A DNA stretch of 64,000 bases from Candidatus Omnitrophota bacterium. GTDB taxonomy: Bacteria > Omnitrophota > Gorgyraeia > Pluralincolimonadales > Pluralincolimonadaceae. The translations under genes and the position numbers were made by a program. The DNA is taken from assembly GCA_003141835.1 (NCBI GenBank), contig PLNR01000005.1:53108-117107 (forward strand), given 5' to 3'. How positions within the stretch are numbered: the stretch's first letter is position 1; each line of letters begins with the position of its first letter. Of the stretch, positions 57,735 through 64,000 are shown one piece after another. The notes under the pieces are model-generated. The model was not told the origin of the DNA and did no database searches. It saw only the letters and a program-made list of their open reading frames with translations.

Positions 57735-57867
57735 AATAAATTTCCGGGAGCTCTTGACAAATCCGGGATATATGGTAAAATATCTGCCAGTAAGATCGTT
57801 ATAGACAAAGGCGTTCCACATTGGGGCGTCTTTTTATTTTTACAAAATACACGCTTAATTTCTCATT

Positions 57868-57992
57868 ATCACCCGCGTCTATCGGGGATAAAAGAGGAAG
57901 CGGGGGAACCAAGTTTTTGGGGCGAATATCTGAAGTTTAGATTAGGGCCGCTCAGCCCGAGTCCGACAGCTAACCTCGTCAGCCCATTTTAG
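57868..57992 (+). ncRNA. candidate c-di-AMP (ydaO/kimA-type) riboswitch in kdp leader
   Basis: Leader contains CGGGGGAACCA, GGGGCGAAT and CCGACAGCTAACCTCGT blocks resembling the two pseudo-symmetric conserved segments of the ydaO motif. Followed directly by a terminator. Assignment by memory only. Confidence 0.4.
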
Positions 57993-58029
57993 AGAGAACA
58001 CACCGGAGAATGCGTTCTCTGGTTTTTTA
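57993..58029 (+). terminator. rho-independent terminator / attenuator upstream of kdpF
   Basis: AGAGAAC (14-nt loop) GTTCTCT then GGTTTTTTATTT. Confidence 0.7.
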
Positions 58030-58087
58030 TTTGGAGCGAAAGCGACATACCTGCCTATAGGCAGGTATTACGATCAAGGAGGATGAA

Positions 58088-58168
58088 ATGGACGTTATTT
58101 TCGTAGCGTTAATAATTTTTCTTACGGTGATTTCCTTTGGCTTTATCGCCCTCTGCGATAAGGTCTGA
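58088..58168 (+). CDS. KdpF-like 26-aa hydrophobic peptide
   Basis: AAGGAGG RBS. MDVIFVALIIFLTVISFGFIALCDKV single TM. Precedes canonical kdpF. Confidence 0.45.
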   Translation: MDVIFVALIIFLTVISFGFIALCDKV

Positions 58169-58180
58169 CAGGAGGCATTG

Positions 58181-58270
58181 ATGACGGCTATTTACTGGAT
58201 CGGCGGTATTGTTTCTCTCGTTATTTTTGTTTATTTGTTGGTCGCTTTATTGAAGCCGGAGATATTCTAA
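58181..58270 (+). CDS. kdpF: KdpF, 29-aa subunit of the Kdp ATPase
   Basis: MTAIYWIGGIVSLVIFVYLLVALLKPEIF matches the KdpF pattern (aromatic/Gly-rich TM ending ALLxPExF). Stop shares a base with the kdpA ATG. Confidence 0.7.
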   Translation: MTAIYWIGGIVSLVIFVYLLVALLKPEIF

Positions 58271-60018
58271 TGAGCTGGAATGACCTGATACAGAGCGTCA
58301 TTTTTCTCGGGGTGCTGCTTTTATTGGTAAAGCCGCTAGGGACATATATGGCGCGTATATACGAAGGCAAGCCGGCCGGAGTCAATGTCTGGCTGGGCCC
58401 GCTCGAGAGAGGGATCTATCGGCTCTCCGGAGCGGATCCCGAGAGGGAGATGTCGTGGAAGACGTATACGGCAGCCGTTATGTTGTTTAACATTATCGGC
58501 TTAATAGTCGTATATGGCCTCCAGCGCCTTCAGGCGCATCTTCCCTTGAACTCGATGTCCATGGCCGCGGTGAGCCCGGATTTGTCTTTTAATACGGCCG
58601 TCAGTTTTGCCACGAACACGAACTGGCAGAGCTACGGCGGCGAGACGACCTTGAGCTATTTTACCCAGATGCTCGGGCTGACGGTGCAGAATTTCGTTTC
58701 TGCCGCGACCGGGATGGCAGTACTTATAGCTTTTATAAGGGGATTTATCCGGAAACAGGCCGAGACGATAGGCAACTTCTGGGTAGACCTGGTCAGGTCG
58801 ACGCTATATATACTGATACCGCTTTCGCTGATACTTGCTTTATTGTTGGTCTCCCAGGGAGTCGTGCAGACATTTAATCCGAGCGCGAAGGTCGCGTTGC
58901 TCCAGCCGACGCAAAATGCGGACGGGAAACCTGTCACGGAACAGGTGCTTGCTCTCGGCCCGGCCGCGTCGCAGATCGCCATCAAGCAGCTGGGTACGAA
59001 CGGCGGAGGGTTCTTTAACGTCAATTCCGCGCATCCTTTCGAAAATCCTACGCCTCTGTCAAACTTTCTCGAGGTCATATCGATACTCGTGATATCCGCC
59101 GCTTTGTGTTACACCTTCGGTTACATGGTCAGGGACAAGCGCCAGGGATGGGCCTTATTGGCAGCGATGCTCATCATCTTTATCCCTTGTCTTTGGATAT
59201 GCGTCCACTTTGAGCAAATAGGCAATCCCGCTTTTGACCGCTTGGGGATCGACCGGAAAGCCGCCGCCTCCCAGCCGGGCGGGAACATGGAAGGCAAAGA
59301 GGCCCGTTTCGGTATAGCAAGTTCCGCTATCTGGGCGACGGCTACTACGGCTGCCTCCAACGGGTCGGTAAATTCGATGCACGACTCTTACATGCCGCTT
59401 GGCGGCCTGGTCCCGATGTGGCTTATGCAATTGGGAGAGGTCATATTCGGCGGCGTAGGGTCAGGCCTTTACGGGATGCTTGCGTTTGTGATCGTCGCCG
59501 TCTTTATCGCCGGGCTCATGATCGGCCGGACTCCTGAATATCTGGGCAAGAAGATAGAGTCTTTTGAGATGAAGATGGCCGCGCTCATACTTTTGATACC
59601 TCACATGTGCGTCCTTATCGGGACCGCGCTCGCCGTGGTCTTGCCCAAGGCGAAGGCGGCCATATTCAATCCCGGCGCCCACGGTTTCAGCGAAGTGCTC
59701 TATGCATTCACTTCCGCGGGGAACAATAACGGCAGCGCGTTCGCCGGCCTGGGCACTAATACGTTTTTTTACAATATAGCTTTAGGGTTGGCGATGTTCT
59801 TTTCCCGGTATTGGCTCATCATACCGACGCTGGCGATCGCAGGTTCGCTTTCCAGGAAGAAGATAGTGCCCGCGACCCAGGGGACTTTGCCCACTCACAC
59901 TCCGCTTTTTATCGTCTTTCTGGTCATGGTCGTCCTGATCGTCGGGGCGCTTACTTTTTTTCCTGCGATGGCCCTTGGCCCGATCGTAGAGCACTTGATG
60001 CTATATGCCGGTCAATAG
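58270..60018 (+). CDS. kdpA: potassium-transporting ATPase subunit A
   Basis: 582 aa polytopic. TNGGGFF, NAD/NNGSAF selectivity-filter-like motifs typical of KdpA. Confidence 0.9.
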   Translation: MSWNDLIQSVIFLGVLLLLVKPLGTYMARIYEGKPAGVNVWLGPLERGIYRLSGADPEREMSWKTYTAAVMLFNIIGLIVVYGLQRLQAHLPLNSMSMAAVSPDLSFNTAVSFATNTNWQSYGGETTLSYFTQMLGLTVQNFVSAATGMAVLIAFIRGFIRKQAETIGNFWVDLVRSTLYILIPLSLILALLLVSQGVVQTFNPSAKVALLQPTQNADGKPVTEQVLALGPAASQIAIKQLGTNGGGFFNVNSAHPFENPTPLSNFLEVISILVISAALCYTFGYMVRDKRQGWALLAAMLIIFIPCLWICVHFEQIGNPAFDRLGIDRKAAASQPGGNMEGKEARFGIASSAIWATATTAASNGSVNSMHDSYMPLGGLVPMWLMQLGEVIFGGVGSGLYGMLAFVIVAVFIAGLMIGRTPEYLGKKIESFEMKMAALILLIPHMCVLIGTALAVVLPKAKAAIFNPGAHGFSEVLYAFTSAGNNNGSAFAGLGTNTFFYNIALGLAMFFSRYWLIIPTLAIAGSLSRKKIVPATQGTLPTHTPLFIVFLVMVVLIVGALTFFPAMALGPIVEHLMLYAGQ

Positions 60019-60027
60019 GAGGTTTAG

Positions 60028-62106
60028 ATGGACAGGTCACATAAAGCAAGATCATTATTTGAGCCGGCTATAGTCGGGCCGGCGGCCATAGATTCGTTCA
60101 GGAAGCTGGACCCGAGGCACCAGATAAAGAATCCGGTGATGTTCGTGGTATTGGTAGTGAGCGTATTGACCACCGGATTATGGTTCCAGGCGTTGATTAG
60201 CCGCGGGGAAGCCCCGGCCAGTTTTATCCTGGCGATAACTTTATGGCTGTGGTTTACCCTGATCTTCGCGAATTTCTCTGAGGCGATGGCTGAAGGACGC
60301 GGAAAAGCGCAAGCAGCCAGCCTTAGGAAAGCCAGGAAGGATACCCCCGCAAAAAAATTGGCAAAGCCAAAATTCGGCTCTAATTACGATATGGTCTCGG
60401 CTACGGCTCTCAGGAAAGGGGATGTCGTCCTTATCGAGGCCGGGGACATGATCCCGATGGACGGGGAAGTCATAGAGGGCGTAGCTTCGGTCGATGAGAG
60501 CGCCATTACCGGAGAGAGTGCGCCTGTCATACGCGAAAGCGGCGGAGACCGCAGCGCGGTTACCGGCGGCACGCGCGTCCTTTCCGACTGGCTTGTCGTG
60601 CGCATCAGCTCAAATCCCGGGGAGACATTCCTTGACCACATGATCGAGATGGTCGAAGGGGCCAAGAGGCAGAAGACCCCCAATGAGATAGCCCTCAGCA
60701 TACTGCTGGCGGTATTTACCATTATTTTTCTTTTGGCGACGATCACACTTTTACCATTTTCTATTTACAGTGTGGTCACATCCGGTCACGGATCGCCAAT
60801 CACGGTGACCGTATTGGCAGCGCTGCTCGTTTGCCTTATTCCTACGACTATAGGCGGTTTATTACCTGCTATCGGGATAGCGGGTATGGACAGGATGATC
60901 CAGGCCAATGTCATCGCCACTTCGGGCCGGGCGGTAGAAGCGGCCGGAGATGTCGACGTCCTGCTCTTGGATAAGACAGGGACCATTACTCTCGGTAACA
61001 GGCAGGCCGTGTCCTTTATCCCGGCTCAAGGCGTTGGCGCTGAAGCGTTGGCTGATGCGGCGCAGATATCCTCTTTATCCGACGAGACGCCTGAGGGAAG
61101 GAGTATCGTCGTTTTGGCCAAAGAGAAATATAATATCAGGGAACGCCAGATACATGAGCTCAACGCGAAATTCATCCCCTTCACGGCGCAGACGCGGATG
61201 AGCGGCGTAGACTTAGGCGACGGCAGGCAGATCCGGAAAGGCGCCGTTGATGCTATCGAGAAGTACATAAAAGAACTCGGAGGGTCATTCCCCGAAGACC
61301 TTAAGGCGAGCATCACATCGATATCCAAAAGCGGAGGCACACCGCTTGTAGTAGCGGAACATAAACATGTGCTCGGCGTCATCCATTTGAAAGATATTGT
61401 CAAAGGCGGCATTAAAGAGCGTTTCGCGGAATTGCGGCGGATGGGCATCAAGACCATAATGATCACGGGAGACAATCCCCTGACCGCGGCAGCTATTTCC
61501 GCCGAAGCCGGCATGGATGATTTCCTTGCTCAGGCTACTCCCGAGACCAAGCTTAAACTCATCCGCGATATGCAGACAGGAGGCAGGCTCGTCGCCATGA
61601 CCGGCGACGGCACTAATGACGCGCCGGCCCTCGCGCAGGCGGACGTCGCTGTTGCCATGAACACCGGGACGCAGGCGGCTAAAGAGGCCGGAAACCTGAT
61701 AGACCTTGATTCCAACCCAACAAAGCTGATCGAGATCGTGGAGATAGGCAAACAGCTTCTAATGACGCGCGGGTCATTGACCACTTTCAGTATCGCCAAT
61801 GACGTCTCGAAATATTTCGCGATAATACCCGCGGCGTTCGTAGGGACTTACCCGGCGCTCGGCGCGCTTAACATAATGCACCTGGCAACACCGGCAAGCG
61901 CTGTCTTGTCCGCGGTCATTTTTAACGCGATCATCATAGTAGCTTTGATCCCGCTTGCTTTGCGCGGCATACCTTATAAACCGATGCCGGCAAGCAAGCT
62001 GTTAAGGGATAACCTTTGGATCTACGGTGCAGGCGGCATCATAACGCCGTTCATTGGCATTAAATTAATAGATATGATCCTGGTCGCTTTACACTTGGTG
62101 AGGTAA
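60028..62106 (+). CDS. kdpB: potassium-transporting P-type ATPase subunit B
   Basis: DKTGTIT phosphorylation motif, [16 protein letters not shown] hinge motif. Confidence 0.95.
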
Positions 62107-62109
62107 AAA

Positions 62110-62691
62110 ATGATAAAAGAACAAGTCAAGCCGGCGATTTTGATATTTATAATATTAACGGTGATCACGGGGATCGTATATCCGCTTTTTGTAACAGGCG
62201 TTTCCAAGGCGCTTTTTCCAAAAAAGGCGGAAGGGAGCCTGATCTATCGGGACGGTAAGGCCGTCGGATCATCGCTTATCGGACAGCCGTTCGATGATCC
62301 GAAGTACCTGTGGGGCCGCATCTCCGCGACATCGCCGGCGCAATATAACGCCTCATCTTCATCGGGTTCTAATATCGGTCCCTCGAATCCCGCCTTGGTC
62401 GACGAGATAAAGGGACGCATCAAAGCGCTGCAGGCGGCCGATCCGGGCAACAAAGCGCCGATCCCGGTAGACCTTGTCACTTCTTCATCGAGCGGATTAG
62501 ACCCGCATATTAGCCTGGCCGCCGCGGATTACCAGGTGCCGCGCATCGCGCGCCTCAGTGGATTACCCGAAGAAACGGTCAGGGGTATCGTAAAACAGCA
62601 TACCTATGGACGGTTCCTGGGATTGATCGGTGAGCCGGTCGTGAACGTGCTGGAAGTGAACCTGGCGCTGGACGGATACAAAAATAAATAG
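62110..62691 (+). CDS. kdpC: potassium-transporting ATPase subunit C
   Basis: 193 aa, single N-terminal TM. SGLDPHIS and YQVPRIAR motifs of KdpC. Confidence 0.85.
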   Translation: MIKEQVKPAILIFIILTVITGIVYPLFVTGVSKALFPKKAEGSLIYRDGKAVGSSLIGQPFDDPKYLWGRISATSPAQYNASSSSGSNIGPSNPALVDEIKGRIKALQAADPGNKAPIPVDLVTSSSSGLDPHISLAAADYQVPRIARLSGLPEETVRGIVKQHTYGRFLGLIGEPVVNVLEVNLALDGYKNK

Positions 62692-62723: not shown

Positions 62724-64000
62724 ATGGAAAAACGTCCGAACCCGGATGAAATATTAGCGAGGGTCAAAGCGGAAGAGGCCCGTCGCGGAAAACTCAAGAT
62801 ATTCTTCGGCGCCGTTGCGGGTGTCGGCAAGACCTATTCGATGCTCGAGGCCGCAAGATCGCGTAAAAAAGAAGGCATCGATGCCGTAGTCGGCTACGCG
62901 GAAACTCATAAGCGCGCCGAAACCGAAGCGCTCCTGGAAGGCCTCGAGATACTTCCCCCAAAGATAATCCCGTACAAAAATGTCGACCTGCGCGAATTCG
63001 ATGTCGACGCCGCATTAAAAAGGAACCCCGGCCTTATTTTAGTCGATGAATTAGCTCACACGAACGCTCCCGGGTCGCGCCATACCAAACGCTGGCAGGA
63101 TATCGATGAGCTTCTTGATAAGGGCATCAATGTTTATACGACGTTAAATGTGCAGCATTGCGAGAGCGCTAACGATATAGTCTCCCAGGTGACCGGTATC
63201 ACGGTGCAGGAGACCGTCCCCGATACATTTATCGAGAAGGCCGATGAGATGGAGCTTGTCGACCTGCCTTCCGAAGAGCTGCTTAAACGCCTTAAGGAAG
63301 GGAAGGTCTATCTCGGCGAGCAGGCAGAACGCGCTGCCCAGCATTTCTTCCAGCCGGGTAACCTGATCGCTTTACGCCAGTTGGCTCTGCGTTATACCGA
63401 ACGCAACGTCGATACCCAATTGATGTCATATAAGAGGGCGCATTCTGTCTCAAAGATCTGGAACGTAAGGGACAGGTTTTTGGTATGCATAAGCCCGAGC
63501 CCGACCGCGATGCGTTTGATAAGGGCAGGCAAGCGCATATCCTCGGACCTGGGTGAAGAGTGGATAGTCGCGTATGTCGAGACCCTTGCGGAATTGCGCC
63601 CCGAGGACAGGAACAGGGTGGCCGAGATGATGAATTTCGCGGAAAAGCTTGGCGCGGAGACCGTTACGCTCAGCGGCCAGGAGGTCGCCGATACATTGAT
63701 CTCTTACGCGCGCTCAAGGAACGTCACCAAGATAATCGTGGGAAAACCCGGCAAACCCAGGTTGCGGGAGCGCATTTTAGGGTCCGTAATAGACAAATTG
63801 GCGAGAAAATGCGGGGAGATAGACCTGTACCTATTGAGCGGCGATGTCCAGGCGCAGCCGGTCAAATTTAAGCCGCCTGTTTTAAAGCCATTTTCCTGGA
63901 AGAATCTCGGCTGGTCCGTAGGCATAATAGCCCTTTGCTCCCTGATCGACCGGATGCTGTTATCTCATCTTGCCCTCGTAAACTTGATAATGATCTACCT
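62724..64000 (+). CDS. kdpD: sensor histidine kinase KdpD, N-terminal part (runs off window)
   Basis: KdpD N-terminal P-loop KIFFGAVAGVGKTYSMLEAA, then Usp-like domain and start of the TM region. No stop before the window end. Confidence 0.85.
   Translation, partial: MEKRPNPDEILARVKAEEARRGKLKIFFGAVAGVGKTYSMLEAARSRKKEGIDAVVGYAETHKRAETEALLEGLEILPPKIIPYKNVDLREFDVDAALKRNPGLILVDELAHTNAPGSRHTKRWQDIDELLDKGINVYTTLNVQHCESANDIVSQVTGITVQETVPDTFIEKADEMELVDLPSEELLKRLKEGKVYLGEQAERAAQHFFQPGNLIALRQLALRYTERNVDTQLMSYKRAHSVSKIWNVRDRFLVCISPSPTAMRLIRAGKRISSDLGEEWIVAYVETLAELRPEDRNRVAEMMNFAEKLGAETVTLSGQEVADTLISYARSRNVTKIIVGKPGKPRLRERILGSVIDKLARKCGEIDLYLLSGDVQAQPVKFKPPVLKPFSWKNLGWSVGIIALCSLIDRMLLSHLALVNLIMIY

Follow-up and report, generated by a model that had tools for sequence, protein, structure and literature searches.

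What controls the kdp operon of an uncultured bacterium whose KdpD does not look like a working histidine kinase, and what is encoded by the short open reading frame (ORF) with which that operon opens? Both questions are raised by a 64,000-nucleotide (nt) stretch of contig PLNR01000005.1, referred to below as the window, in which six cistrons (the small ORF, kdpF, kdpA, kdpB, kdpC and kdpD, in this order) follow a structured 5' leader. On the joint evidence, we consider it probable that this leader is a ydaO-class cyclic di-AMP (c-di-AMP) transcriptional OFF switch that replaces KdpDE, and that the small ORF is likely to encode an accessory membrane partner of the Kdp pump. The features concerned are collected in Table 1.

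An earlier note, made from the sequence of this DNA, had proposed a ydaO-class c-di-AMP riboswitch followed by an intrinsic terminator in the kdp leader; both are borne out, by a match to an Rfam family and by a terminator hairpin, respectively. An Infernal scan returned a strong match to RF00379, which had an E value of 6e-17, covered the full model (positions 1-134 of 134), and was the sole Rfam match at gathering score within the window. The aptamer began 18 nt upstream of the start given in the earlier note. Its core, from P1 to P1', spanned positions 57852-57985 and contained a 33-nt insertion in the variable P2 stem. The ydaO-like blocks that had been quoted as reminiscent of the class were all present (CGGGGGAACCA at 57901-57911, GGGGCGAAT at 57919-57927, and CCGACAGCTAACCTCGT at 57963-57979). 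Two pseudo-symmetric conserved cores (CGGGGGA.CC ... GGGGCGAAU, and CCGA ... CAGCUAACCUCG) were located in nested helices and were aligned with high posterior probability. The aptamer lies in the 5' leader, with the terminator 3 nt past it and the kdp genes downstream.

For comparison, 80 loci from species-representative genomes and 80 metagenome loci, chosen as encoding the closest relatives of the window KdpA, were analysed (160 in total). RF00379 was found at gathering score in six of them. A single genome locus was positive (L074, from a metagenome-assembled genome (MAG) of Phycisphaerales, 68 bits), together with five metagenome loci (L149, 84.2 bits; L092, 76.9 bits; L089, 75.6 bits; L094, 69.3 bits; and L086, 69.2 bits), and in all six the riboswitch immediately preceded the first kdp cistron. 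A covariance model made from seven aptamers did not bring up additional copies, either in the other loci or in annotated control replicons. RNAalifold analysis of the seven kdp-linked aptamers yielded 22 consensus pairs, with compensatory changes in nine of them.

The pseudoknot of RF00379, as deduced from the sequence of a published crystal construct, arises from pairing of the purine-rich 3' tail with the loop that closes the second GGG..CCC hairpin. The two partners covary in the relatives: UUCUCA pairs with UGAGAA in L089, CCUC with GAGG in L092 and L094, CUUCC with GGGAG in L149, and CUUGGU with ACCAAG in L074. In the window, the predicted pairing is CUC with GAG, i.e., three base pairs (bp) and one more past a mismatch, as compared to 4-6 bp in the relatives. 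We conclude that the kdp leader, judged by its match to the family model and by covariation, carries a genuine member of a known c-di-AMP riboswitch class, with a known target, in a new phylum.

The terminator was identified by pattern scan and by folding. In DNA form, its hairpin reads ACCGGAGAA-TGCG-TTCTCTGGT (58002-58023), and the T-run comes next. The predicted stability of the terminator is -11.4 kcal/mol, and the surrounding 51-nt stretch has a z-score of -2.9. A terminator after the aptamer was thus correctly called in the earlier note, but the stem drawn for it, AGAGAAC (57993-57999) paired with GTTCTCT (58014-58020), does not stand as the terminator stem. It is an alternative helix of -7.4 kcal/mol, 4 kcal/mol weaker than ACCGGAGAA/TTCTCTGGT, in which the complementary 3' tail of the aptamer pairs with the 3' arm of the terminator and so shares that arm with it. 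The window and loci L089 and L086 have a common module, which consists of the tail (A/G)GAGAAC, the sequence ACC(G/A)GAGAA, a tetraloop (UGCG, AGCG or UACG), UUCUCUGGU, and five to six U residues. The terminator stems are conserved between the window and these two loci, while the loops vary. The only change in the stem, from an A-U pair in the relatives to a G-U pair in the window, keeps the pairing. Pairing-preserving change together with variable loops is the pattern expected for a terminator under selection, as this one is predicted to be.

Other related loci appear to be built differently downstream of the aptamer. In L092 (765-790) and L094 (730-755), the pseudoknot tail GAGAGG runs straight into UUUUUAUGU; here, the ligand-stabilised pseudoknot may double as the terminator stem, an expression platform unlike that of the window. 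In the Phycisphaerales locus L074 (3618-3986), the riboswitch is accompanied neither by the small ORF nor by a clear U-rich terminator, and a hairpin is located beside the Shine-Dalgarno sequence of kdpF. Control in this locus may be translational.

The sensor encoded at the end of the operon was analysed on the full-length protein of 726 amino acids (aa), as encoded on the 443-kb source contig (ENA ERZ27254250 k141_397642) that an exact-protein match had identified. KdpD-N, Usp, DUF4118 and GAF domains were detected in it, the match to HisKA was below threshold, and HATPase_c was not found in a domain search of the complete protein. The protein aligns to residues 7-714 of the 894-residue E. 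coli KdpD and ends at the position of residue 714. The phospho-acceptor motif, SHDLRTPL in E. coli, reads SYELPEPL, with the histidine replaced by tyrosine. We conclude that the window KdpD, as far as its domains and motif tell, is kinase-dead, its histidine-kinase function having been lost. A search for KdpE homologues (E up to 1e-3) in the window and the 8 kb beyond it, ca. 72 kb altogether, gave none. With KdpD apparently kinase-dead and kdpE missing from the vicinity, it is probably the riboswitch that exerts transcriptional control. Beyond the end of the window by ca. 0.9-1.5 kb, there is a 228-aa ORF with a LAGLIDADG_3 homing-endonuclease-like domain (L081, 12755-13441, minus strand). 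Lying on the opposite strand, it overlaps truncated kdpD at the 3' end of the latter, exactly at the site where the kinase catalytic domain is expected, and its position may mark how the kinase half of KdpD was lost.

The following scheme of regulation is proposed. When K+ is sufficient, c-di-AMP would be high and the aptamer, including the pseudoknot with its 3' tail, would be locked; the hairpin at 58002-58023 and the U-run would then terminate transcription ahead of the first cistron. When c-di-AMP is low, the tail or another 3' sequence of the aptamer would interfere with the terminator, and the operon would be read through. We infer the antitermination step because the RF00379 family is known for OFF-switch behaviour (PMC6488665, PMC9960051). 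In this way, the riboswitch would replace KdpDE as the transcriptional controller. The retained N-terminal and Usp domains of KdpD probably still inhibit the pump post-translationally, as can be surmised from the work of Silberberg et al. (2024, PMC11018627).

Next to the riboswitch, the small ORF is the second element of the operon considered here. The earlier note had described it as a KdpF-like peptide, and the resulting pair of KdpF-like peptides as unusual; neither description holds, while the conservation of the 26-aa frame in relatives, raised there as a check, is clear. Homologues located directly upstream of kdpF were found by tblastn in many loci. A family hidden Markov model (HMM) was built from 27 homologues (alignment A1) and run over all six-frame segments of the loci, and a judgement was made for the 150 loci in which 260 nt or more are available upstream of kdpA. 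With positives defined by an HMM E value below 1e-3, and with loci L008, L051, L059 and L078, which had been mis-scored by a distance filter, added by hand, the small ORF was present in 132 of the 150 loci. Weaker matches at the same position were seen in 13 more, and none in 5. In the genome set, every significant match was on the kdp strand just before kdpF, and no match with E below 2 was observed anywhere else among 15,464 six-frame segments. The metagenome set replicated this positional result. In one Omnitrophota MAG (L008), the small ORF and kdpF (1009-1186) are ca. 2.8 kb upstream of the kdpA match (4001), which suggests that either kdpF and kdpA were separated by an insertion or there is a second partial operon.

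The coding nature of the small ORF is evident from its pattern of substitution. None of the 110 unique coding sequences is interrupted by an in-frame stop; all have Asp2, and 96 have Cys23. Entropy is highest at third codon positions (1.63), followed by first (1.21) and second (0.78) positions. Among single-nucleotide codon changes in close pairs, the ratio of synonymous to nonsynonymous changes was 1767:859 in frame, compared to 510:2000 and 305:2595 in the shifted frames. Thus, the amino acid sequence of the small ORF is under clear purifying selection. The start codon is an ATG at the first position of the HMM or one codon upstream, with a Shine-Dalgarno-like sequence in 50 of 64 members. 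The core of 26 codons is kept across phyla; in some members, a short basic extension is added at the C-terminus. In most loci, the stop codon is next to the kdpF start or overlaps with it. The consensus is MD(L/I/V)(L/V)(Y/F)xGLxxxFFxL(T/S)(W/F)G(L/F)(V/I)xLC(E/D)(R/K)(L/V/I), from which a short family signature, MD...[ST][WF]G...LC[ED][RK][LVI], can be given. The predicted peptide is one hydrophobic (transmembrane) helix, acidic at its N-terminus and charged at its C-terminus.

None of the 27 family members matched any Pfam or NCBIfam model, PF09604 and TIGR02115 for KdpF included, even at E up to 10, and no match to a PDB chain was observed. An hhalign comparison of the family with a KdpF alignment gave a probability of 0.6% and a single aligned column. 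The 29-aa ORF that follows, in contrast, is KdpF, as had been proposed, with matches above the cut-offs of both models and a position directly before kdpA. Its Shine-Dalgarno sequence, AGGAGG (58170-58175), precedes the start by 5 nt, and its stop codon overlaps the kdpA start (TAATG). The two peptides are alike in length (ca. 26-30 aa), in having one transmembrane helix, in being, by prediction, co-translated with the pump genes and in being encoded ahead of kdpA. They differ in motif and have no sequence or profile similarity; since one is always accompanied by the other, with the small ORF first and kdpF second, they are not alternatives to each other. We conclude that the small ORF, by these profile comparisons, represents a conserved family of mini-proteins distinct from KdpF.

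The phyla in which the small ORF is present include Omnitrophota, Planctomycetota, Chloroflexota, Methylomirabilota, Myxococcota, Bacteroidota and Deinococcota, along with Alpha-, Beta- and Gammaproteobacteria. In annotated replicons, the family HMM matched in Rhizobium (E 2e-8), Mycetohabitans (E 1e-5), Azospirillum (E 5e-5), Burkholderia (E 3e-3) and Deinococcus (E 5e-3), and weakly in Acetobacter; similar mini-ORFs initiated with MD or MxD are found in Sinorhizobium meliloti, Variovorax and Rhodococcus. The family was not found in the replicons of E. coli K-12, Halobacterium and Lactiplantibacillus, the last being the sole Firmicute replicon examined. A tblastn comparison of a consensus peptide with plasmids gave no match, probably owing to the low-complexity filter, as members are detected by the HMM in those records. 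Where members are annotated, they are called 'potassium ABC transporter ATPase', 'hypothetical protein' or 'conserved exported protein of unknown function'. The first of these names is given by RefSeq to a 34-aa member in L082 and L083 (1008-1112 in both). In Deinococcus geothermalis (L169, 423-587), kdpF is annotated as 54 aa long and is apparently over-extended across the small ORF, which is in another frame. Most of the exact small-ORF sequences are absent from a collection of 15 billion proteins, and in reviews of bacterial small proteins (2023, 2025) KdpF is the only entry for Kdp.

Table 1. Features of the kdp locus and its leader (positions are those of the window)
Feature	Coordinates	Strand	Details
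KimA-type K+ transporter homologue, 663 aa	55743-57734	+	Pfam AA_permease_2, 65.6 bits; PDB 6S3K (KimA), E 6e-58, residues 40-485
Sigma-70-like promoter candidate	57754-57781	+	TTGACA, 16-nt spacer, TGgTAAAAT (extended -10); 11 of 12 consensus positions
Terminator-like leader hairpin	57807-57840	+	AAAGGCGUUCCA-CAU-UGGGGCGUCUUU then UUAUUUUU; between promoter candidate and aptamer
c-di-AMP riboswitch aptamer, RF00379 (ydaO/yuaA)	57842-57999	+	Rfam 79.8 bits (gathering score 38 bits)
Purine-rich 3' tail AGAGAGAAC	57991-57999	+	Presumed pseudoknot partner of loop CGCUCA (57949-57954); alternative partner of terminator 3' arm
Intrinsic terminator	58002-58028	+	9-bp stem ACCGGAGAA/UUCUCUGGU, loop UGCG, U6 starting at last stem base
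Perfect 22-nt palindrome/hairpin	58047-58068	+	ATACCTGCC-TATA-GGCAGGTAT; -16.1 kcal/mol, z = -5.0
Small ORF, 26 aa, MDVIFVALIIFLTVISFGFIALCDKV	58088-58168	+	First cistron; AAGGAGG 5 nt before ATG; family HMM E 7e-12
kdpF, 29 aa	58181-58270	+	PF09604, 34.7 bits (cut-off 21.2); TIGR02115, 31.3 bits (cut-off 26.85)
kdpA	58270-60018	+	PF03814, 829.7 bits
kdpB, P-type ATPase subunit	60028-62106	+	Pfam E1-E2_ATPase and Hydrolase domains
kdpC	62110-62691	+	PF02669, 248.5 bits
kdpD, 5' part (gene runs beyond window end)	62724-64000	+	Full gene on source contig, 726 aa

The organism to which this operon belongs was determined separately from the operon. The nearest relatives of the window KdpA, with 74-80% identity, were from Brocadia, Planctomycetia and Omnitrophota MAGs, and no relative of more than 78-80% identity was found among the genomes or metagenomes searched. 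Because kdp genes move horizontally, the host was placed by the leucyl-tRNA synthetase of the contig instead, whose named relatives (72-94% identity) were all Candidatus Omnitrophota. An affinity to Planctomycetota (anammox bacteria), as suggested by KdpA, is overruled by this result, and so is the Firmicute framing given to the kdp leader in the earlier note.

The closest known system is that of Bacillus thuringiensis BMB171, in which transcription of kdp is terminated by a c-di-AMP riboswitch, with a truncated KdpD and without KdpE (Wang et al. 2019, PMC6488665). In the same work, riboswitch-controlled kdp was recorded in just 12 species, all of them Bacillales and all with a truncated KdpD, and the riboswitch and a working KdpDE were proposed to be mutually exclusive. 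The window resembles B. thuringiensis in having RF00379 and an intrinsic terminator in the kdp leader, a KdpD without kinase function and no KdpE partner seen in ca. 72 kb. It differs in its Omnitrophota host, in the extra small ORF that opens the operon, in an extra terminator-like hairpin before the aptamer, and in the make-up of KdpD, which at 726 aa retains Usp, membrane and GAF regions and a dead DHp segment, whereas the B. thuringiensis protein is a 365-aa N-terminal stub. The type member of RF00379, the ydaO (kimA) riboswitch of B. subtilis, shares the aptamer class and, as proposed here, the OFF-switch logic for K+ uptake, yet there it belongs to kimA, while the kimA homologue of the window is without one of its own and the riboswitch precedes kdp instead.

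KdpD variants of the kind seen here have been described. The N-terminal domain of KdpD is a serine kinase that inhibits KdpB, kinase-less versions of KdpD prevail in the absence of KdpE, and Usp domains are able to bind c-di-AMP (Silberberg et al. 2024, PMC11018627). Like these kinase-less variants, the window KdpD has kept the N-terminal serine-kinase and Usp domains, has by prediction lost histidine-kinase function, and has no kdpE nearby. While PMC11018627 ties the riboswitch to some Bacillota only, the window pairs a KdpD of the 'truncated DHpCA' type with a riboswitch in another phylum. For two small ORFs before kdpA, there is a published precedent in the Clostridium acetobutylicum kdpZYABCXDE operon (Treuner-Lange et al. 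1997, cited in PMC5401905). By position, the one respect in which the two were compared, the small ORF corresponds to KdpZ, as each is the first of two small hydrophobic ORFs before kdpA. KdpZ and KdpY are hydrophobic peptides, and both were reportedly described as subunits of the complex in a 2001 follow-up.

Several observations weigh against an OFF switch acting by termination. No convincing antiterminator helix emerged from minimum-free-energy and duplex folding of the leader, in which every fold retained the terminator; the window's own predicted pseudoknot is just 3-4 bp long; the second terminator-like hairpin, located between the best promoter candidate and the aptamer, makes the transcription start uncertain; and no diadenylate cyclase was seen in the available sequence, in which no search aimed at one was made. 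The aptamer could be real and yet act through translation or RNA stability, or it could be a decaying relic, the hairpin at 58002-58028 then being a leaky constitutive attenuator. Such a scheme would account for the failure to find an antiterminator by folding; it would agree with the behaviour of some actinobacterial c-di-AMP riboswitches, which lack terminators and act on translation (PMC9960051), and with the ca. 60 nt, including a strong hairpin, that separate the window terminator from the Shine-Dalgarno sequence. It fits poorly with the tail and terminator module, nearly every base of which is conserved in L089 and L086 in spite of the divergence of loops and flanks, with an aptamer score far above threshold accompanied by covariation, and with the B. 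thuringiensis precedent, which uses termination (PMC6488665). We regard action by another route, or decay, as distinctly improbable and retain the transcriptional OFF switch as the preferred reading of the leader.

The small-ORF peptide may be an accessory membrane partner of the Kdp complex, acting in the complex itself, its assembly or its regulation; this role is suggested because the ORF has a fixed position, its stop abuts or overlaps the kdpF start, and it is co-inherited with kdpFABC across phyla. It is not obligatory, as is clear from the five of 150 loci without it and from L074, which has the riboswitch without the ORF, and E. coli KdpFABC works in its absence. A view in which translation of the ORF matters rather than the peptide, by coupling ribosomes onto kdpF or by shielding or unfolding the leader RNA, has on its side that the ORF is the first cistron right after the leader, that in most loci its stop codon touches or overlaps the start of kdpF, and that a 43-nt insertion in the window brought a new, stronger Shine-Dalgarno sequence. 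We think it quite unlikely, given the purifying selection on the peptide (1767:859 in frame, invariant Asp2, Cys23 in 96 of 110, a 26-codon core) and the presence of the ORF in ca. 95% of related loci without a riboswitch. The peptide could alternatively act on the sensor KdpD and not on the pump, by analogy with MgrB and SafA, which act on PhoQ. Mycobacterial KdpF itself binds KdpD (PMC10730256), and the window peptide is predicted to be co-transcribed with a KdpD that retains its membrane domain; the ORF, however, stays by kdpF-kdpA regardless of the genes downstream, as in the kdpB-F-A-C arrangement of Deinococcus, and we judge action on KdpD to be unlikely. Very improbable, finally, is that the peptide is a diverged duplicate of KdpF. 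Its similar size, single hydrophobic helix and adjacent position would invite this idea, but none of 27 members matched PF09604, TIGR02115 or any other model, the hhalign probability was 0.6%, and the motifs differ (MD...LC[ED][RK][LVI] in the small ORF versus ...YL..ALLKPE.F in KdpF). With a membrane partner of the pump preferred, we tentatively put forward, at somewhat less than even confidence, that the 26-aa cistron is an unrecognised fifth, single-helix Kdp component (a subunit, an assembly factor or a regulator) in most kdp operons outside Enterobacteria, in at least 10 phyla. It would have been overlooked because E. coli, the sole structural model, is without it and because gene callers skip it.

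The remaining elements of the region are less readily assigned. The promoter candidate has a match at the equivalent place in L089. The terminator-like hairpin that follows it has a predicted stability of -14.4 kcal/mol (z = -5.5); its stem is also found in L089 (542-573), behind a different upstream gene, and is absent from L086. It might serve as a 5' stabiliser, as a second attenuator or as an insulator. The palindrome between the terminator and the small ORF is inside the window-specific 43-nt insertion (ca. 58045-58087, relative to L089 and L086), which also supplies the Shine-Dalgarno sequence AAGGAGG (58076-58082) of the small ORF. It occurs once in the window, is not a dispersed repeat and is not conserved in the relatives; it might function as an operator site or as an RNA hairpin. 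Upstream, the kdp leader is adjoined by the kimA homologue, the start of which overlaps the end of a preceding major facilitator superfamily transporter gene. The Rfam scan of the window revealed no RF00379 match upstream of the kimA homologue, which has no riboswitch of its own and is not under that of kdp either.

The riboswitch result is solid, yet it will be unsurprising to specialists except in one respect: it overturns the notion that the arrangement is 'restricted to Bacillales'. Contrary to the conclusion of the survey in PMC6488665, the predicted c-di-AMP control of kdp transcription recurs outside Bacillales, and riboswitch-kdp pairs are found in uncultured lineages of the Planctomycetota-Verrucomicrobiota-Chlamydiota (PVC) group and others, again alongside a kinase-dead KdpD. 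With this recurrence, there is more reason to regard the riboswitch and KdpDE as controllers that can replace each other. The small-ORF family would correct annotations such as the RefSeq name 'potassium ABC transporter ATPase' for a 34-aa peptide, and it has tractable carriers in Rhizobium, Azospirillum, Burkholderia and Deinococcus. Inherited along with kdpFABC through many phyla, covered by no family model and not present in the E. coli structures, this mini-protein is a candidate for a missing component of Kdp.

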